Origin: Candidatus Rokuibacteriota bacterium
GTDB lineage: Bacteria; Methylomirabilota; Methylomirabilia; Rokubacteriales; CSP1-6
DNA: 64,000 nt
Assembly (NCBI GenBank): GCA_003220265.1
Contig: QHRW01000115.1
Coordinates: forward strand, 1,391-65,390
Reading direction: 5' to 3'
The notes below the pieces were generated by a model. The model made no database searches, was not told where the DNA came from, and saw only the letters and a list, made by a program, of their open reading frames with translations. The position numbers and the translations under genes were made by a program. Of the stretch, positions 2,051 through 62,825 are shown piece by piece. How positions within the stretch are numbered: the stretch's first letter is position 1; each line of letters starts with the position of its first letter.

Positions 2051-2494
2051 ATGAGCCTCACACTGTCGCAGGCGACGACGATCGTGGACGCCGCGCTGAA
2101 GAAGGGGCGCGAGCTGAGCCTGGCGCCGTTGACCGTCGCCGTGCTGGACGCGGGCGGCCATCTCAAGGCGCTCGCGCGCGAGGACGGCAGCGGCATCGTG
2201 CGGCCACAGATCGCCATCGGCAAGGCGTGGGGCGCGCTCGGCATGGGGCTCGGCTCGCGCACCCTGGCCAAGCGCGTGGCCGAGCAGGGACCCCAGCAGC
2301 AAGCCTTCTTCTCGGCGCTCAACGCCATGTCGGAAGGTCGCGTGGTGCCGGCGGCGGGCGGCGTGCTCATCAAGGACGGCGGCGGCGCGGTCATCGGCGC
2401 CGTCGGCATCTCGGGGGACGTCTCGGACAAGGACGAGGCGTGCGCGCTGGCGGGAATCGCCGCCGCCAAGCTCGTGGCCGATCCGGGCGCGTGA
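2051..2494 (+). CDS. GlcG/HbpS-like heme-binding protein (DUF336)
   Basis: MSLTLSQATTIVDAALKKGRELSLAPLTVAVLDAGGHLKAL...IGAVGISGDVSDKDEACA, the typical DUF336 pattern. Start taken at the internal ATG of ORF 1799..2494. Confidence 0.75.
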   Translation: MSLTLSQATTIVDAALKKGRELSLAPLTVAVLDAGGHLKALAREDGSGIVRPQIAIGKAWGALGMGLGSRTLAKRVAEQGPQQQAFFSALNAMSEGRVVPAAGGVLIKDGGGAVIGAVGISGDVSDKDEACALAGIAAAKLVADPGA

Positions 2495-14800: not shown

Positions 14801-16245
14801 GCCTCCGAGCGCACGACCTCGCGGAAGGTCTCGCGCGCCAGCGTGCGGTAGGGGAACGCGCTCACGAACCGCTCGTAGAGCGCATCCACGCCGATCGACT
14901 CGGCGGCCACGGCCGCGACGACCTGCTGGGCCAGCACGTCCAGCGGCGCCTCCGGCATCGCGATGCGATCGAGGCGATGCTCGCGGATCGTGCGCACGAC
15001 GGCCGCGGCCTCCAGCAGCTCCTCGCCTTTCGTGACGAGAATGCGCCCCTTCGAGGTGCGCGACAGCAGATGGCCGGCGCGCCCCACGCGCTGCAGCGCG
15101 GCCGCCACGTTGCGCGGCGACTGCACCTGGATCACGAGGTCGATCGCGCCCACGTCGATGCCGAGCTCGAGCGACGAGGTGGCGACGAGCGCCCGCAGCT
15201 CGCCCGCCTTGAGCCGGTTCTCGGCCTCCAGCCGCGCGCGCCGCGAGAGTGACCCATGATGGGCCGCCACTTTGTTGCCGAAGGGGGCTACGCCCCCCTC
15301 GCTCTCCCCTTTGTTGGCGAAGGGGGCTACGCCCCCCTCGCTCTCCCCCGGTCCATCGGGGATCCGATCGTTGAGGTCCCGCGCCAGCCGCTCGGCCGCC
15401 CGCCGGCTCTGCGCGAACACCAGCGTCGTGCGGTGGGCCAGCACCAGCTCGGCGATCTGCTGGAGCGCCGCGTCCCACACGGTGTCGCTGGTCGCCGTGA
15501 GGAAGTCGTCCACCGGCGAGACGACCTGCACGTCGAGGTCGCGCGAGAAGCCGGCGTCCACAACCAACGGTTCGCGCCCGGTGGCGCCCGTCAGAAAGGC
15601 CAGCGCATCCTCGATGGGGCTCACCGTCGCCGAGCAGCCGATGCGCTGCGGGCGCGCGCCCGGCTCACGCTCGGCCACCAGCGCCTGCAGCCGCTCCAGC
15701 GAGAGCGCGAGGTGAGAGCCGCGCTTGCTGCCCATGAGCGCGTGGACCTCGTCCACGATGACGAAGCGGGCCTGGGCCAGCGCCGGCCGGAAGCCCGCGC
15801 TCGTGAGCAGGATGTAGAGCGACTCGGGCGTGGTGATCAGCACGTGAGGCGGCCGTCGGGTCATCGCCTGGCGCGCGGCCGCCAGCGTGTCGCCGGTGCG
15901 GACGGCCACGCGGACCTCGGGGACGTCGAGGCCGTCGGCCTCGGCCGCGGCGCGGATGCCGGCCAGTGGCTCGCGCAGGTTCTTCTCGATGTCGTTGTTC
16001 AGCGCGCGCAGCGGCGAGACGTAGACCACGTAGACGCGGTCCTCGAGACGTCCCTCGAGCCCCAGCCGGTGCAGGTGGTCCAGCGCCCACAGAAACGACG
16101 CCAGCGTCTTGCCGGACCCCGTCGGCGCCACGATGAGCGTGTCGCGGCCGGAGGCGATCGCGTCCCAGCCCTCACGCTGCGGGCGGGTGGCCTCGGTGAA
16201 CGTCGCCTCGAACCAGCGACGGACGAAGGGGAGGAACTGCGGCAT
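11830..16245 (-). CDS. lhr: ATP-dependent helicase Lhr (large helicase-related, DEAD/DEAH superfamily 2)
   Basis: 1471 aa: APTGSGKT (Walker A), VIVDEVH, CSATV, HHGSLSRRAR, TSSLELGIDVG, QRVGRAGH, plus a long Lhr-type C-terminal domain. Confidence 0.9.
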   Translation of the reverse strand: MPQFLPFVRRWFEATFTEATRPQREGWDAIASGRDTLIVAPTGSGKTLASFLWALDHLHRLGLEGRLEDRVYVVYVSPLRALNNDIEKNLREPLAGIRAAAEADGLDVPEVRVAVRTGDTLAAARQAMTRRPPHVLITTPESLYILLTSAGFRPALAQARFVIVDEVHALMGSKRGSHLALSLERLQALVAEREPGARPQRIGCSATVSPIEDALAFLTGATGREPLVVDAGFSRDLDVQVVSPVDDFLTATSDTVWDAALQQIAELVLAHRTTLVFAQSRRAAERLARDLNDRIPDGPGESEGGVAPFANKGESEGGVAPFGNKVAAHHGSLSRRARLEAENRLKAGELRALVATSSLELGIDVGAIDLVIQVQSPRNVAAALQRVGRAGHLLSRTSKGRILVTKGEELLEAAAVVRTIREHRLDRIAMPEAPLDVLAQQVVAAVAAESIGVDALYERFVSAFPYRTLARETFREVVRSEAEPLPAEVKGVAPRILWDRVNDRLHARRGSRFLALTAGGTIPDAGLYDVYVAETDLKVGTLDEEFVTESLPGDVFLLGSHAWKIAKVRADRVLVEDAQGMSPTIPFWKGEHPSRSWDLGVAVGRLRRDAAERLDAPDFAAWAARECGLDARATAAMHAWLVKAGEVLQGVADDQGIVVESFSDEMGGRHAMIHSVFGMRINGAWGMALREQVRRRFGLQAEVSHVDDGILLSFAPGQVPPAPERLVTLVAPEELDNLLGEALIGSPLFGTRFRHAAVRALFIPRMTRGQRTPAYLQRLKADALLEAVKGQPDFPVVAETLRECFNDAYDVPRLKRVLERLHDGEMWTRHVDTPVPSPFVYPLLLAWDWAYLDTGHAEERRSDTVAMRKNWSVAPGPLRPEIIAAVEAELQRTTPERRARDANELAAILDDLGDLTRAEIGERVVSDADALIAALLAERRITLVEFGARHAWIPATDAPLYAGLATEAGLERIALRALRTRGPVTAQSLAERYGLTPDDIQPALERLVARGVVRRGDFMREELEGGSAPLKLERYLHIAVLDEIQRRQVHARRVPRPVATAEQFAAFLLRRHHLHPEHRLVGPPGVLAALELLQGEDFPVKVWEQDLLSARVEDYQREWLDRLGLAGEIVWTVFEPAAGRVGVALRDNVGWLRETGERPELDPKTKNVLLHLQLRGASFARDLARGAGLEPPQVEAALWDLFRAGLATPDTFSAIVAAAASPRGAETGSARRRRPRRGQARGLLAHLPPIGRWSALAEEERLSPEEREEARAQLLLARYAVVTRELARGDWATLRHTLLRMEYGGEVVRGYFVEGLSGEQYALEDSLTNLAASPRRAEPHVLVNLADPANLWGRAWPLSRRDGGRLGVARLPHAWLIVRAGRPVVVAENYGRELTPLAAFEPVDLPGTVRALQTLMERPLTLRPVRRLEIVGWDSRPIRETEAFAAFIEAGFSADGARLTWDGYPGPRLLR
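13151..13181. repeat. 31-nt palindrome (14-bp stem, 3-nt loop) embedded in frame in lhr
   Basis: AGCTTGAGGGGGGC-GCT-GCCCCCCTCAAGCT, paired by hand. On the gene strand it encodes ELEGGSAPLKL. Confidence 0.75.
15271..15348. repeat. 2 x 39-nt in-frame tandem duplication inside lhr, each copy carrying a GC hairpin
   Basis: 15271-15309 and 15310-15348 differ at 1 of 39 positions. The core is CGAAGGGGGC-TAC-GCCCCCCTCG. They encode GESEGGVAPFANK and GESEGGVAPFGNK. Confidence 0.85.
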
Positions 16246-28741: not shown

Positions 28742-29494
28742 CTAGAGCGCGAGAAGCTCGTGCCGCAGCGCCTGGTCGTCGCGCAGGCGGGCGGCGGGGC
28801 CGCTGAAGCGAATCGAGCCCTTCTCCAGCACGTAGACGCGGTCGGCCAGGGCCAGCGAGAACTCGGTGTTCTGCTCGGCGAGCAGAATGGTCAGTCCCTC
28901 GTGCTTGAGCCGCGCGATCTGCTCGCGCAGGTGATCGACGACGAGCGGCGCCAGGCCTTCGGAGGGCTCGTCGAGGAGCAGCAGCTCGGGGTTGCCCATG
29001 AGCGTCCGCGCGATGGTCAGCATCTGCTGCTCGCCACCCGAGAGATAGCCGCCGTTGCGCCCGGTCAGCTCGCGCAGCTTGGGGAAGAGATCGAAGACTC
29101 GCTCCACGGTCCATTGGAGCGGGTGCCGGGAGTCCGGATCGCTCCGAGGGTGGCCTGGTCTAGATGCGGCGTGGCTCCGTTTACTGGCGACGTCCAGGTT
29201 CTCCCAGACCGTGAGGTCGGCGAAGATGCGCCGGTCTTCGGGGACGAAGCCGATGCCGGCCTGGGCGACTCGGTACGGCGGCCAGCCGGTGATGTCGACG
29301 GACTTCCACGTGATGCGGCCCGCCTGCGGCGGCGTGAGGCCCATGATCGAGCGCATCGTCGTCGACTTGCCCACACCGTTGCGGCCGAGCAGGCACACGC
29401 ACTCGCCGGCCGCCACCTCCAGCGACACGCCGAACAGCACGCGTGAGAGCCCGTAGGCCGTGTGCACGTCGTGCGCCTCCAGGACGACACTCAT
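28742..29494 (-). CDS. livF: Branched-chain amino acid ABC transporter ATP-binding protein LivF
   Basis: MSVVLEAHDVHTAYG...GRNGVGKSTT (Walker A), LSGGEQQML, LLLLDEPSEGL. The real start is ATG 29494; the 373-aa ORF extension reads through the repeats. Confidence 0.9.
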   Translation of the reverse strand: MSVVLEAHDVHTAYGLSRVLFGVSLEVAAGECVCLLGRNGVGKSTTMRSIMGLTPPQAGRITWKSVDITGWPPYRVAQAGIGFVPEDRRIFADLTVWENLDVASKRSHAASRPGHPRSDPDSRHPLQWTVERVFDLFPKLRELTGRNGGYLSGGEQQMLTIARTLMGNPELLLLDEPSEGLAPLVVDHLREQIARLKHEGLTILLAEQNTEFSLALADRVYVLEKGSIRFSGPAARLRDDQALRHELLAL

Positions 29495-29948
29495 CTCTCG
29501 ACGTGGGGGGCCCCGACATGGCCCCCCACACCCCCCAACGCTCGGAGTGCCCCGGGGAACCCGTGGCACTCCTCGATTTCCCGCGTGCTCATCTCTCGAC
29601 GTGGGGGGGCCCCGACATGGCCCCCCACACCCCCCAACGCTCGGAGTGCCCCGGGGAGCCCGTGGCACTCCTCGAGTTCCCGCGTGCTCATCCTCTCGAC
29701 GTGGGGGGCCCCGACATGGCCCCCCACACCCCCCAACGCTCGGAGTGCCCCGGGGAACCCGTCGCACTCCTCGAGTTCCCGCGTGCTCATCTCTCGACGG
29801 GGGGCCCCGACATGGCCCCCCACCCCCGCCAACGCTCGGAGTGCCCCGGGGAACCCGTGGCACTCCTCAAGTTCCCGCGTGCTCATCTCTCGACGGGGGG
29901 CCCCGACATGGCCCAACCCGTCGTACTCCTCGATTCCCCGCGTGCTCA
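29491..29948. repeat. Tandem array 1 of the two-hairpin GC-rich repeat family (5 units: 98, 99, 99, 96, 63 nt)
   Basis: On the plus strand, units start at 29491, 29589, 29688, 29787 and 29883, each beginning TCATC(C)TCTCGACG. Hairpin 1 is at 29503-29529 and hairpin 2 at 29544-29572. Confidence 0.9.
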
Positions 29949-30683
29949 TCGGCGCTCGCCCAGGTAGACGCGGCGGACCTCGGCGTCGGCGCGGACGTCG
30001 GCGGGCGCGCCCTCGGCGATCACGCGGCCCTGGTGGAGCACGGTGATCTTCTGCGCGATCGAGAAGACGACCTCCATGTCGTGCTCGGTGAACAGGAGCG
30101 TGAGGCCCCGCTCGCGCGCGATGCGCTCGACGAGACGGATCGTCTCGCGCGTCTCGGAGACGGACATGCCCGCCGTCGGCTCGTCGAGCAGGAGCAGCGA
30201 CGGCTCGCTGGCCAGCGCGATGCCGAGCTCGAGCTGCTTCTGGGCGCCGTGGGAGAGGAAGCCGCTCACCTCGCCGGCGCGCTCGCGCAGGCCCAGCGAC
30301 GCCAGCAGCGCCTCGGTCTCGCCCCGGTAGAGCTCGTCCACGCGGCTCCAGAGATCGAGCCCGCGCCCCCGGTGCGACAGGAACGCGGCCTGCACGTTCT
30401 GGTAGACCGTCAGCCGGGGAAAGATGTTCGTGCGCTGGAAGGAGCGCCCCATGCCGAGGCGGCAGACGTCGTGCGGGGGCAGCCCGGTGATGTCGCGGCC
30501 CTCGAGCACGACGGCGCCCGCCTCCGGCCGGAGGTGGCCGGTGATCAGGTTGAACAGCGTCGTCTTGCCGGCGCCGTTCGGGCCGATGATCGCCGCGATC
30601 TGCCCGCGGGCCACGCTGACGCTGGCGTCGTTGACGGCCACGAAGCCGTCGAACGACTTGCGCACGCCACGCACCTCGAGCAT
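29946..30683 (-). CDS. livG: Branched-chain amino acid ABC transporter ATP-binding protein LivG
   Basis: MLEVRGVRKSFDGFVAVNDASV...GPNGAGKTTLFN, LSHGAQKQLE, LLLLDEPTAGM. Internal start of ORF 29946..31283. Confidence 0.9.
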   Translation of the reverse strand: MLEVRGVRKSFDGFVAVNDASVSVARGQIAAIIGPNGAGKTTLFNLITGHLRPEAGAVVLEGRDITGLPPHDVCRLGMGRSFQRTNIFPRLTVYQNVQAAFLSHRGRGLDLWSRVDELYRGETEALLASLGLRERAGEVSGFLSHGAQKQLELGIALASEPSLLLLDEPTAGMSVSETRETIRLVERIARERGLTLLFTEHDMEVVFSIAQKITVLHQGRVIAEGAPADVRADAEVRRVYLGERR

Positions 30684-38327: not shown

Positions 38328-39815
<1,488 letters not shown>

Positions 39816-39830
<15 letters not shown>

Positions 39831-40110
39831 CGCGCCGCTGATCGCGGAGCGCCACGGCCTGGCCGGGGCGCTCCGAGCGCGGGGGGGCGTGGGGGGCCAT
39901 TTCGGGGCCCCCCACGACGGGCGGTGAAGCGGGTCATCGCGCCGGTGATCGCGGAGCCCCCCGGCGTGGCCGGGGCGCTCCGAGCGCCGGGGGGCATGGG
40001 GGCCATTTCGGGGCCCCCCACGACGGGCGGTGAAGCGGGTCATCGCGCCGGTGATCGAGGAGCGCCGCGGCTTGGCCGGGGCGCTCCGAGGGCCGGGGGG
40101 GCGTGGGCAT
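39816..40110. repeat. Tandem array 2 of the two-hairpin repeat family (107 + 106 nt units plus one 5'-truncated unit), in opposite orientation to arrays 1 and 3
   Basis: On the plus strand, units start with GGTGAAGCGG(C/G)TCATCGCGCC at 39816, 39923 and 40029. Hairpin 2 is at 39846-39874. Hairpin 1 is GTGGGGGGCC-ATTTCGG-GGCCCCCCAC. Confidence 0.9.
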
Positions 40111-40326
40111 CTCGCCGCCGGCCGCGCTCATCACGGCCTGGATGTTGGCGCACACCTGGCGGAACTGGGCCACGACGTCGCCCTTGCCCACCACGACGTT
40201 GTTGCCGTCGCGCGCGACCTGGCCGGCGATGAACACGAGGCGGCCGTGCTTGACCTCGAAGCCGTACGAGAAGCCCTGCGGCTTCGGCAGCGTGCGGGGC
40301 AGCACCGACGAGATGTGGTCCTTCAT
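39934..40326 (-). pseudogene. ridA: RidA/YjgF family gene truncated after about residue 73 and fused in frame to repeat-derived sequence
   Basis: MKDHISSVLPRTLPKPQGFSYGFEVKHGRLVFIAGQVARDG...QFRQVCANIQAVMSAAGGEM is RidA-like. From 40107 downward the ORF reads through repeats as PTPPRPSERPGQAAALLDHRRDDPLHRPSWGAPKWPP... Confidence 0.7.
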
Positions 40327-40327
40327 G

Positions 40328-41125
40328 TCATGTTCCCCTCCATTGGGGCGAGCCGTCGAGCACGACGGTCTCGCCGTTGAGCGTGGCGTCGCGCAGCAGC
40401 CTCAGCGCGGCGTCGGCGACTTCCTGGGGCTCGATGAGCCGGCCGCCCGGGTTCATCTGCGCGAGCGAGGCCACCGCGTCGTCGAACGAGCGGCCCGTCT
40501 TGGCCACGATGTTGCGCGCGCCGTTCCACACCATGTCGGTCGCGACGAAGCCCGGACAGATCGCATTGACGGTGACGCCCTTGCCGCTGACCTCGGTGGC
40601 GAGCGCGCGCGTGAGGCCGACCAGCGCGTGCTTGGAGGCCGTGTAGGCCGCAACGTACGGCGAGCCGACGAGCCCGGCCAGCGAGGCCACGTTGATGACG
40701 CGCCCCCAGCCGCGCTCCAGCATGCCGCCGAGCACCGCACGCGTGGCCAGGTACGGCCCGGTGACGTTGACGCGCAGGTGCCGCTCCCACATCTCGGGCG
40801 TCGTCCGGGCGAAGGGCGCCGACTCCGCGACGCCGGCGTTGTTGACGAGCACGTCGATCGGCCCCAGCTTGGCCACCGCCTGGGCGACGCCGGCCTCCAG
40901 CGAGGCGGCGTCGGCGACGTCGAGCGCGACGGCGACCGCGGAGGCGCCGGCTCCGCGGATCTCTGCCGCCGCCGCCTCCGCCTCTTCGAGGCCGCGGGCC
41001 GCCACCGCGAGCGCGAGCCCCTCGCGGGCCAGGACGCGCGCGATGGCGCGGCCGATGCCCCGACTGCCGCCGGTCACGAGCGCGACGCGTGCCGTCACGG
41101 CCTCACGGTAACACGCGGCGCGCAC
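40328..41125 (-). CDS. SDR family oxidoreductase (FabG-like)
   Basis: ALVTGGSRGIGRAIA, NNAGV, YAAYTASKHAL (YxxxK). The start is either GTG 41125 or an internal GTG. Confidence 0.85.
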   Translation of the reverse strand: MRAACYREAVTARVALVTGGSRGIGRAIARVLAREGLALAVAARGLEEAEAAAAEIRGAGASAVAVALDVADAASLEAGVAQAVAKLGPIDVLVNNAGVAESAPFARTTPEMWERHLRVNVTGPYLATRAVLGGMLERGWGRVINVASLAGLVGSPYVAAYTASKHALVGLTRALATEVSGKGVTVNAICPGFVATDMVWNGARNIVAKTGRSFDDAVASLAQMNPGGRLIEPQEVADAALRLLRDATLNGETVVLDGSPQWRGT

Positions 41126-47900: not shown

Positions 47901-47927
47901 GCACCAGGATCTCGGACAGGTTAACGA

Positions 47928-48010
47928 GGGCCGCCCCGGCTGCGCCGGGGCGGCCCGAGCGTCGGGGGGGTTGGGGCCATCTCGGGGGAACGTCCATAGG
48001 GACCCCCCAC
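47928..48010. repeat. Solo degenerate copy of the two-hairpin repeat (same orientation as array 2)
   Basis: A perfect 29-nt palindrome GGGCCGCCCCGGC-TGC-GCCGGGGCGGCCC lies at 47928-47956. It is followed by GAGCGTCGGGGGGGTTGGGGCCATCTCGGGGG...CCCCCCAC, which aligns with array 2 except for an insertion of about 13 nt in hairpin 1. Confidence 0.7.
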
Positions 48011-48084
48011 TGCCGCCCACGTTGAGCGACGCGCCACCCTCGCCCGTGCGTTGGCAGTTTATCCATCACGCGCTCGCTCCAACG

Positions 48085-49395
48085 CGTTGTTAGGCGCCGG
48101 GCAGGTACAAACCGGGTACATAGGTAACACATCAAACCGGGAACATGGGTGACACCACTAAGGTCGTCGGTCAACGGGAGGTTGGCCGATGGCCTGGCTG
48201 GAGACATCACCCGTGGAGCAGCGAGAGCGGTTCATCCGCGATCACCGAATCGGGTTGTACACGATGGCGGAACTCTGTGCCCGTTACGACGTCAGTCGGA
48301 AGACCGGCTACAAATGGCTCGCGCGCTTCGACGCCGCGGGTCGCGCCGGTCTCCAGGACCGCAGCCGCGCGCCGCACCACTGCCCGCACCGGATCACTCC
48401 GGATGTCGCCGCGGTGATCTGTGCCGCGCGCCGGCAGCATCCGAGCTGGGGACCCGCGAAGCTCTTGGCGTGGCTGGAGCGTCGGCAACCGGCGCTGGAG
48501 CTGCCCGCGATCAGCACCGCCGGCGATCTCTTGGCGCGCCGCGGGCTAGTGAAGACACGACGGCGCCGCCGCCACTACGAGCATCCTGGTGTCGTTCCGA
48601 TCAGGACGACGGCGCCCAACGATCTCTGGACCGCGGACTTCAAGGGCCATTTTCGAACACGTGATGGGCTCTATTGCTATCCGCTCACCGTCGCCGACCA
48701 GCACACGCGCTATCTCTTGGCGTGCCATGGCCTGCTCTCGACCAAAGGCGGCGGCGTGCGCCCGGTCTTCGATCGACTGTTCCGCGAGTATGGGCTCCCC
48801 CAGGCCATTCGGACCGACAACGGCGTGCCGTTCGCCACGACGGGCATTCACGGCCTCTCCCAGTTGAACGTGTGGTGGCTGCGTCTGGGCATTCAGCACC
48901 AGCGGATCCGCCCGGCCTCGCCGCAGGAGAACGCCGCCCACGAGCGCATGCACAAAACGCTCAAGGGCGAGGCGATTCGGCCGCCCCGGTCAACGTGCGT
49001 CACTCAGCAGCGCGCCTTTAACGGCTTTCGCCACCTGTACAACGACGAGCGACCCCACGAAGCGTTGCAGGGGCGCACGCCGGTGTCGCTCTACCGTCCC
49101 TCGCGGCGGGAGTACACCGGGGCGGTACCGCCCGTCGAGTACCCCGGACACTTCATCGTCAAGCGGGTGACCAATGCCGGCACGATCCGGCTGAACAAGC
49201 GCCTACTCTTCATTGCGAATGCGCTGAAGCAGCACCCGGTCGGGCTCGAGGAGGTCGACGACGGCATCTGGTCCATTCATTTCTGCCGCGTGCTATTGGG
49301 GCGCGTGGACGAACGGGACTACATCATCAGAACGTGAACGGTTACCCATGTTCCCGGTTTACGGTGTTACCTATCTTCCCGGTTGCTCAGCACAA
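48085..49395 (+). mobile_element. IS481-family insertion sequence (ends approximate)
   Basis: A single DDE transposase ORF is flanked by imperfect inverted ends: left ...AACCGGGTACATAGGTAACAC..AAACCGGGAACATGGGT, and the reverse complement on the right. Termini are near TGTTAGGC (48088) and GCTCAGCACA (49394). Confidence 0.75.
48189..49337 (+). CDS. IS481-family transposase (HTH + rve/DDE integrase core)
   Basis: 382 aa: MAWLETSPVEQRERFI..., LWTADFKG, IRTDNGVPF, PQENAAHERMHKTLK, YNDERPHEAL. Confidence 0.85.
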   Translation: MAWLETSPVEQRERFIRDHRIGLYTMAELCARYDVSRKTGYKWLARFDAAGRAGLQDRSRAPHHCPHRITPDVAAVICAARRQHPSWGPAKLLAWLERRQPALELPAISTAGDLLARRGLVKTRRRRRHYEHPGVVPIRTTAPNDLWTADFKGHFRTRDGLYCYPLTVADQHTRYLLACHGLLSTKGGGVRPVFDRLFREYGLPQAIRTDNGVPFATTGIHGLSQLNVWWLRLGIQHQRIRPASPQENAAHERMHKTLKGEAIRPPRSTCVTQQRAFNGFRHLYNDERPHEALQGRTPVSLYRPSRREYTGAVPPVEYPGHFIVKRVTNAGTIRLNKRLLFIANALKQHPVGLEEVDDGIWSIHFCRVLLGRVDERDYIIRT

Positions 49396-62492: not shown

Positions 62493-62825
62493 TCATGGGG
62501 GCCACGAAATGGCCCCCAAACCCCCCGACGTTCGAAGCGCCCCGGCGGAGCCGTGGCGCTTCTCTGGAATGGTCCAGCGTCATGGGGGCCTCGACATGGC
62601 GCCCCCAAACCCCCCGACGTTCGAAGCGCCCCGGCGGAGCCGTGGCGCTTCTCTGGAATGGTCAGCGTCATGGGGGCCTCGACATGGCGCCCCCAAACCC
62701 CCCGACGTTCGAAGCGCCCCGGCGGAGCCGTGGCGCTTCTCTGGAATGGTCAGCGTCATGGGGGCCCCGAGATGGCCGCCAAGCCCCCACACGTTCGTCG
62801 CGCCCCGGCGCTTCTCTGGAAGCTG
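62493..62825. repeat. Tandem array 3 of the two-hairpin repeat family (87, 88, 88 nt plus one degenerate unit)
   Basis: Units start with TCATGGGGGCC at 62493, 62580, 62668 and 62756. Hairpin 2 of unit 1 is at 62534-62562. The last unit has lost the hairpin-2 loop. Confidence 0.9.

Follow-up and report, generated by a model that had tools for sequence, protein, structure and literature searches.

Rokubacteria are large-genome, uncultured soil bacteria that are known only from metagenomes. The stretch considered here (hereafter, the window) comprises 64,000 nucleotides of contig QHRW01000115.1 from Candidatus Rokuibacteriota (assembly GCA_003220265.1) and has a GC content of 71%. On its minus strand, an SDR gene is followed by a remnant of ridA and by a gene of the OYE family, and a tandem array of a two-hairpin repeat, array 2, lies between the last two. 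Copies of this element occur at four loci of the window, namely arrays 1, 2 and 3 and one solo copy (Table 1). Tandem Repeats Finder places array 2 at 39809-40107, with a period of 106, 2.8 copies, 91% matches and a score of 498, and this result, together with the alignment of the units, bears out the two full units (107 and 106 nt) and the single 5'-truncated unit that a first-pass annotation had described.

Unit 1 is built, in this order, of ATGA, a copy of the OYE 5' end, hairpin 1, a C-run, hairpin 2 and the tail GCGATCAGCGGCGCG, and it shares 93.5% identity with unit 2. The difference between 106 and 107 nt, as well as the frame relations derived from it, hinges on the length of C/G homopolymer runs, which would be error-prone if the assembly were nanopore-based. 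A covariance model built from 100 members of the family, R1, matches array 2 on the minus strand at 39840-39916 (76.8 bits), 39947-40022 (71.1 bits) and 40053-40120 (39.3 bits). In the window, the hairpin-1 pattern has 11 matches against 0.11 expected, and the hairpin-2 pattern has 12 against 0.00. These matches lie on the minus strand in array 2 and on the plus strand in arrays 1 and 3, as they should if the core of array 2 is the reverse complement of the other two, which had been the earlier reading. The linker ATGACCCGCTTCACCGCCCGTCGT had also been seen to resemble the start of OYE, ATGAGCCGCTTCACCGTCCGTCAC; the resemblance holds, and its extent has been corrected, as the repeat reaches 22 nt into OYE, to 39809. 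The array is not a CRISPR, since the linkers between its cores are themselves repeated.

Table 1. Features of the window that are discussed in the text (positions count from the first letter of the window).
Feature	Position	Strand	Remarks
OYE-family gene (Oxidored_FMN), downstream of array 2	38328..39830	-	Pfam PF00724, E = 6e-35; 80 orthologous loci
OYE 5' end, first 22 nt	39809..39830	-	within repeat unit; holds ATG 39830-39828 and TCCGTC microhomology 39814-39809
Array 2, unit 1, 107 nt	39831..39937	-	core element 39840-39916
Array 2, unit 2, 106 nt	39938..40043	-	core element 39947-40022; G.G mismatch in hairpin 2
Array 2, unit 3, 5'-truncated, 64 nt	40044..40107	-	lacks linker and most of hairpin 1; joined to ridA codon 73
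Bridging ORF, 36 codons	39827..39937	-	from ATGA ending the ridA-derived ORF to ATGA at OYE start
ridA remnant, codons 1-73 of 137	40108..40326	-	open frame continues through array to TGA 39936-39934
SDR gene, upstream of ridA	40328..41098 (ORF 40328..41125)	-	member of conserved operon SDR-ridA-(ligase)-OYE
Array 1, between livG and livF	29490..29950	+	antisense to genes; 4 full units and one internally deleted
Array 3, between ZIP-family gene and aroQ	62493..62820	+	sense
Solo copy, degenerate hairpin 1	47922..47999	-	downstream of enoyl-CoA hydratase gene; covariance model 58.5 bits

The element belongs to an abundant family. A scan with the hairpin-1 pattern, covering one genome per species, gave more than 115 stretches among the matches listed, nearly all of them in metagenome-assembled genomes (MAGs) of Rokubacteria, Rokuibacteriota or Methylomirabilota; the first 80 loci come from at least 37 MAG assemblies of Rokubacteria/Methylomirabilota. 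The consensus of 100 aligned copies measures 77 nt and contains two hairpins. It reads N-T-G(5-6)CCCCGANATGGC(5-6)-A-N' (hairpin 1), A, C(5-6), AACGCTCGG, hairpin 2 and CCTCGAT, where hairpin 2 has a 13-bp stem, AGCGCCCCGGC-GRA-GCCGKGGCGCT. The pairing of hairpin 2 is kept through 125 double changes, as compared with 39 in shuffles, and its covariation score is 0.157 against 0.046 in shuffles, and it is no more than 0.04 once the partners are displaced by 1-3 columns. Covariation extends to the foot pair of hairpin 1 (AT/AT 22, GT/AC 20, CT/AG 12, TT/AA 8), and both hairpins are predicted on either strand, with z-scores from -2.1 to -3.7. Hairpin 1 is otherwise near-invariant in sequence, which is partly a product of the search pattern, and hairpin 2 keeps its structure only. 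Model R1 matches every unit of arrays 1-3, the degenerate solo copy of the window and 160 further copies in the fetched loci, which are referred to below by L numbers. A literature search on repeats or palindromes in Rokubacteria or Methylomirabilota found nothing relevant.

The position of the element relative to genes was surveyed at 126 loci (solo copies or arrays) from Rokubacteria MAGs, combining nhmmer matches with the calls of a custom gene caller based on GC at third codon positions (GC3), which was checked against Pfam. The element is sense to its genes at 34 loci, antisense at another 34 and between convergent genes at 32, and the remaining loci lie between divergent genes (9), inside a called gene (5) or at a contig edge (12); the figure for divergent genes is too high, because array 3 was scored as divergent solely through a missed small gene. 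Neighbours of family copies include livG/livF, aroQ, atpD/atpC and ftsZ/pgeF/yggS, and the hairpin-1 side lies at a median of 5-13 nt from the neighbouring gene end, be it a stop or a start. At 25 of the 126 loci the element forms a tandem array of 2-5 units, with a linker peculiar to the locus. The five copies inside called ORFs (open reading frames; L004, L040, L071, L086 and L089) could be in-frame insertions, as in Rickettsia palindromic elements, or gene-calling artefacts. These counts are in effect a survey of orientation against transcription, and they reveal no strand preference. The unbiased orientation, the covariation of hairpin 2 and that of the foot pair of hairpin 1 thus uphold the earlier argument that what is conserved is the palindromic structure rather than a coding or strand-specific signal.

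One alternative, a strand-specific RNA element with a cis-regulatory or terminator role in the ridA-OYE operon, would explain why array 2 sits inside an operon, directly upstream of a start codon, with a stable predicted RNA fold. It would not explain the equal use of both orientations, the many copies between convergent genes, or the presence of the element beside unrelated genes such as liv, aroQ, atpC and ftsZ. Furthermore, hairpin 1 is followed by ACACCCCCC and by no U-run, no promoter-like or terminator-like site was found in 39600-40500, and Rfam 15 gave no match for the whole window at gathering score and none for 39780-40130 at E<=1, so that this explanation is hardly credible.

High copy number, extragenic location and orientation independence of GC-rich imperfect palindromes recall instead the REP (repetitive extragenic palindrome) and REPIN elements. 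If the family were of this type, its hairpins would be single-strand DNA recognition sites of a domesticated HUH tyrosine transposase (RAYT, or a relative of the IS200/IS605 TnpA), present once per genome and copying the element to intergenic sites, and the arrays would be a side effect. A near-invariant hairpin 1 next to a hairpin 2 conserved only in structure is what a protein recognition site should look like, subject to the contribution of the search pattern, and the element has been inserted independently upstream of the same OYE gene, in opposite orientations in different lineages (the window, L116 and L117 against L140). In L140 (1-68), a more distant OYE orthologue, it abuts the OYE start codon in the orientation opposite to that of array 2, and the first bases of that ATG are contributed by the foot of hairpin 1 (..GGCCCCCCAT); this insertion at the same boundary arose independently. 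Against a REP-type origin, the clusters are direct repeats with no inverted doublet, and the two hairpins, whose sequences are unrelated, keep one order throughout. There is no GTAG-like tetranucleotide 5' of the hairpin either: the T at -1, which pairs with A at +1, is the sole conserved base, and positions -2 to -16 are variable. No transposase was found near the element, and phmmer and jackhmmer searches with E. coli RayT (phmmer E<=10) yielded no RayT-like ORF in ~1.5 Mb of Rokubacteria DNA around elements and the window. The space between inverted copies was considered as the place of a transposase and holds housekeeping genes instead, pgeF downstream of ftsZ (L085) and atpC (L070). A REP-type origin is therefore doubtful.

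The history of the array 2 locus can be followed in 80 orthologous OYE loci fetched from metagenomes. The element occupies the same place in none but the two closest, L116 (96%) and L117 (87%), both of which are contigs that break within the element. Elsewhere among the relatives, the operon has the form SDR-ridA-OYE or SDR-ridA-AMP-ligase-OYE with its genes joined by ATGA overlaps, empty sites lacking the element show the ATGA overlap, and the relatives nearest by ridA/SDR identity (L201, L120) have the ligase-containing form. L052, tried as one half of a filled/empty pair, has an extra gene relative to the window and was unusable. Loci that carry the element and loci that lack it have the same conserved OYE N-terminus, M-S/T-x-A-R-F-x-V/I/L-R-H-R; the ATGAGCCGCTTCACC of the gene is therefore original, and the linker copies derive from the gene. 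The same conservation rules out the array 2 linker as a family-wide tail module, an idea prompted by a GATTCGTTCAC module elsewhere.

Exact-protein look-ups with the SDR (265 aa) and OYE (500 aa and 571 aa) of the window gave no match, and conspecific contigs were reached by a homologue search with the SDR. One of them, L197, is 99.8% identical to 42219-40105 of the window and 99.5% identical to 39920-38774. Between these two near-identical stretches it contains an intact 137-aa ridA, one 107-nt unit and OYE, and ridA is intact as well in L200, from another sample. The cores of unit 1 and of L197 differ at two positions only, one in the 3' arm of hairpin 1 and one in the tail. With respect to L197, which has the progenitor allele, the window allele has extra units and has lost 205 nt. 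The left flank of the L197 element, ATGATCCCGGACGTC, corresponds to the opening codons of the ligase gene in relatives, and the right flank, GCGCGATGA, to the final ligase codons, which overlap the OYE start. The remnants amount to the first ~15 nt and the last ~9 nt of the ligase gene, which means that the ligase was lost in this lineage and that the element stands in its place. A GACGTC common to the 5' and 3' ends of the ligase gene may mark the deletion. The AMP-dependent ligase gene, of ~1.6 kb, is found between ridA and OYE in the nearest relatives and is missing in the species of the window (2304-2325 and 2403-2414 of L197 compared with L201, L120, L119, L123, L132 and L167). The left flank was also considered as a long duplication of the OYE start and rejected, since relatives identify it as the 5' remnant of the lost ligase and only a TCCGTC hexamer is shared.

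L197 has two TCCGTC hexamers with a spacing of exactly 107 nt, of which the first (2320-2325) is located just 5' of hairpin 1 and the second (2427-2432) coincides with OYE codons 6-7. Duplication of the interval between them predicts an internal junction in which ...GCGCGATGAGCCGCTTCACCGTCCGTC is joined to GTGGGGGGCCCC, and the observed junction differs at two positions only, both of which are common to the two internal linkers. A 107-nt duplication between TCCGTC motifs also explains why the array ends at 39809. The suggestion that the duplicated unit took in the 5' end of OYE thus stands, both because the OYE start is conserved in repeat-free orthologues and because the L197 model predicts the linker bar two substitutions. 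The 205 nt missing from the window correspond to ridA codons 74-137 and the left flank. At the deletion junction, where GAGATG is followed by CCCACG, the GAGATG of ridA meets the GAAATG of the hairpin-1 loop, which indicates a microhomology-mediated deletion.

Arrays 1 and 3 also vary between strains. Tandem Repeats Finder delimits array 1 at 29490-29914, with a period of 99, and array 3 at 62493-62810, with a period of 88. In contigs whose LivF is identical to that of the window, array 1 has 5 units (L203) or 3 units (L204), as compared with 4+1 in the window, and units 2-5 of L203 are near-identical to the four full units of the window. L202 was inspected as an empty livG-livF site and discarded, as the contig starts inside the array. 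In contigs with identical AroQ, array 3 has 2 or 3 full units plus a partial one, and some unit variants are absent from the window. Several contigs start or end inside the arrays. These contig ends and the differences in unit number show that the arrays are real, strain-level variable-number tandem repeats (VNTRs).

It could be argued that the multi-unit array 2 and the truncation of ridA are a chimera or a mis-expansion of a single unit during assembly. The only spanning conspecific contig, L197, has indeed one unit and an intact ridA, and L116 and L117 break inside the element. However, 7 positions differ between the units, and both linkers share two substitutions that are absent from the gene copy, as predicted by a real duplication followed by divergence; moreover, several independent assemblies confirm that arrays 1 and 3 have more than one unit. 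The conspecific contigs L196, L198 and L199, which come from different samples, end at window positions 40251, 40282 and 40251, respectively, ~146-177 nt short of the junction between ridA and the array. An end at 40251, as in two of the three, is what a k=141 branch of the assembly graph would give, which hints that intact and truncated ridA alleles coexist in the soils of those samples. Internal consistency and the contig ends at 40251-40282 in three other samples argue that the multi-unit allele is real, and an assembly artefact is very unlikely.

The reading frames around the array deserve separate attention. The ORF at 39934..40326 on the minus strand matches the Pfam profile L-PSP (RidA) at positions 11-63 of 121 only; it is therefore a truncated ridA, full-length in the orthologues and in the conspecific alleles L197 and L200, whose open frame runs into the array. 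The ORF list agrees with the first-pass annotation that this frame ends in an ATGA at 39934-39937, that the ATG at 39937-39935 starts a 36-codon ORF and that the TGA of the latter (39829-39827) overlaps the OYE ATG (39830-39828). L197, with its single copy, also has an equivalent 36-codon bridging ORF. As had been pointed out, OYE is in frame with the ATG at 40043, which opens a 571-aa ORF (38328..40043). In array 1, an ATG overlapping the livG stop starts a 152-codon ORF, whose TGA overlaps the livF ATG. The claim that the repeats are chained to their neighbours by ATGA junctions is thus correct for arrays 1 and 2, and it does not extend to the family, as unbroken chains of overlapping ORFs are found at ~10 of the 68 co-directional loci (~15%). 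Chaining is a local consequence of the element sitting in a junction that is already an ATGA overlap, and the near-absence of stop triplets helps: counting both strands, a copy has on average 0.46 stop triplets, against 1.81 in shuffles, and 64% of copies have none, against 17% of shuffles, figures that are descriptive only, since the copies share ancestry.

Such chains would be expected of a mobile insert resembling the interspersed repetitive units of mycobacteria (MIRUs), that is, one which targets and duplicates ATGA overlaps and carries an open frame, so that the bridging ORF hands ribosomes on and the insertion is nearly harmless. Bridging ORFs from ATGA to ATGA span array 1, array 2 and the element of L197, comparable chains exist in seven further loci (L009, L038, L060, L066, L070, L081 and L093), GATGAG/CTCATC direct repeats flank several copies, stop triplets are depleted in all six frames, and MIRUs offer a precedent (PMC12548453, PMC3184786). 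Nevertheless, the low frequency of unbroken chains speaks against such an insert, and coupling is irrelevant at the 32 loci between convergent genes. The depletion of stops is weak evidence, because open frames are cheap in GC-rich DNA and the copies are related by descent. The ATGAs flanking the element in L197 are the pre-existing ridA/ligase and ligase/OYE overlaps and do not represent a duplicated target. An insert of the MIRU kind is thus rather unlikely.

Taken together, these observations make it probable that array 2 is a minisatellite or VNTR, formed by local tandem amplification that varies between strains, from a single copy of an interspersed palindromic repeat; the family of this repeat is non-coding, has two hairpins and occupies the short gaps between Rokubacteria genes. 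The model proposes that the first duplication was illegitimate and microhomology-mediated, between the TCCGTC motifs 107 nt apart, and that it would have placed a copy of the OYE start, ATGA included, in every unit. Further units would have arisen by unequal exchange or replication slippage, and a second microhomology event, between GAGATG in ridA and GAAATG in the hairpin-1 loop, would have removed the 3' half of ridA and the first hairpin. Duplication and deletion are probably triggered by the hairpins, which are stable and GC-rich and would stall replication. Inside an operon, the element would be co-transcribed and, by analogy with REP sequences, its hairpins would form in either orientation. 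As the element has almost no stop triplets, bridging ORFs could keep ribosomes coupled to the downstream gene. We think that the element has no dedicated host function, and that its likeliest effects, judging from REP sequences, would be on mRNA decay and translational coupling.

Several points weigh against this interpretation. This window is the sole source of the allele with multiple units and a truncated ridA, no independent contig spans its junction, and short-read contigs may collapse copy numbers. At the ridA deletion, a further loss of ~4 nt from the C-run means that the microhomology join is not clean. The orientation survey depends on gene calls from the custom GC3-based caller, and the effects proposed on RNA stability and coupling are drawn from analogy. 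Neither a mechanism of mobility nor a transposase was found around the elements. A fixed target-site duplication was sought and rejected, as there is just a weak excess of flanking direct repeats: repeats of at least 6 nt are found on both sides of 42% of the solo copies, as compared with 28% in permuted controls, with no consistent target-site duplication.

A bolder proposal, to which we give a low probability, is that the element is a not yet recognised, non-autonomous mobile DNA that homes to gene boundaries (stop codons and ATGA overlaps) in either orientation. It would be harmless by virtue of six stop-free frames and coupling through bridging ORFs, and its hairpin 1 would be recognised by a putative Rokubacteria-specific single-strand DNA enzyme. 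If this were true, it would be a structural analogue of MIRUs that evolved independently, and it could reveal how such elements move.

Other observations concern the composition of the family. The strand complementary to the element has G-runs of G4, G6, G6 and G4, with matching C-runs on the given strand, and the formation of a G-quadruplex or i-motif is conceivable from this composition. A tail module, GCGATTCGTTCACGGGCTCTGA, is conserved 5-12 nt after hairpin 2 in L005, L006, L015, L029, L036, L044, L077 and L113 and is absent from the arrays of the window; it may define a longer subfamily or a third module. L001, L021 and L115 have a different sequence downstream of hairpin 1 (..GCACTCCCCC..GCGGAC..), and one of the three is in a MAG labelled Verrucomicrobiia; they may belong to a second family sharing hairpin 1, or to a mis-binned contig. 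At 15270-15348, the window contains another small hairpin repeat (CTTTGTTGCCGAAGGGGGCTACGCCCCCCTCGCTCTCCC), distinct from the element and present in two tandem copies of 39 nt, next to an ATGA at 15256-15259. Its hairpin, GAAGGGGGCTnACrCCCCCCTCG, recurs as an optional module between hairpins 1 and 2 in L006 (6032-6054) and L018 (7801-7823), which suggests a modular repeat system. The degenerate solo element at 47922-47999 is followed by sequence of low GC content, bearing a 25-nt tandem repeat (48108-48155) and part of an integrase core (rve_3, 48717-49337), and the region 47922-49337 may be a decayed insertion sequence.

The presence of an abundant hairpin repeat in variable arrays explains why short-read contigs break at gene junctions (L116, L117, L202, L205). 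Gene callers will yield spurious or extended ORFs over the arrays, such as the 571-aa 'OYE' and the ORF of 152 aa in array 1. The arrays are a natural marker for strain typing, as MIRU-VNTRs are for tuberculosis. Comparison with relatives indicates that these repeats remodel operons, since at the array 2 locus the AMP-ligase was lost, ridA was truncated and the 5' end of a gene was duplicated, and the progenitor and derived alleles provide a worked example of microhomology-mediated duplication and deletion beside a hairpin element.

The closest known systems are the REP/BIME-type palindromic repeats and the mycobacterial MIRU-VNTRs. The likeness to MIRU-VNTRs lies in the unit size of 40-100 bp, the tandem arrays with copy number varying at the strain level, the intergenic position inside operons, the short direct repeats at filled sites and the GC-rich genomes. 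Unit number does vary between strains here: for array 2 it is 2.8 in the window and 1 in L197, and arrays 1 and 3 vary too. MIRU orientation, as reportedly described by Supply et al. in 1997, is fixed and co-directional with the flanking genes, and this is not what the family displays, with 34 sense, 34 antisense and 32 convergent loci. MIRUs (Supply et al. 1997, summarised in PMC12548453 and PMC3184786) are 40-100 bp units of mycobacterial operons, whose ORFs overlap the stop and start codons of their neighbours with a -4 (ATGA) spacing. This arrangement is matched locally, at arrays 1 and 2 and L197, whereas in the family as a whole ORF chaining is confined to a minority of loci. The Rokubacteria element also comes from another phylum, is dominated by two strong covarying hairpins, often lies between convergent genes, and has array linkers that are locus-specific pieces of the flanking genes.

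REP, BIME and REPIN elements are extragenic palindromes of Proteobacteria that are mobilised by RAYT transposases (PMC3116915, PMC3337134). A REP consists of one hairpin, 21-65 bp long, and has a tetranucleotide conserved on its 5' side; REPs occur in inverted pairs, are linked to RAYT and have been reported to protect upstream mRNA from decay (PMC3116915, PMC3337134, PMC3184786). They resemble the Rokubacteria family in being abundant, extragenic, orientation-independent and lineage-specific GC-rich imperfect palindromes, often at gene 3' ends and inside operons, clustered and vertically inherited. By contrast, the Rokubacteria unit consists of two unrelated hairpins in a fixed order over 77 nt, its clusters are direct tandem repeats that include flanking gene sequence, and no RAYT was found in the ~1.5 Mb searched. 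RIME-type mosaic elements of rhizobia are modular intergenic repeats of several hairpin modules. BOX elements of Streptococcus pneumoniae are likewise modular intergenic hairpin repeats, in which the inner module alone is reiterated (PMC3184786). BOX and RIME share with the present element several hairpin modules in variable number, the lack of a known transposase and proposed effects at the RNA level, but their module architecture and sequence are different, and a link to overlaps of gene stops and starts is not described for them. Therefore, as the likeness to MIRUs and REPs is partial, and the fixed orientation of the former and the inverted doublets and 5' tetranucleotide of REPINs are not seen here, the element represents a new family of a known general kind that belongs to neither named family; apparently, it is an undescribed example of familiar bacterial junk or structural DNA.

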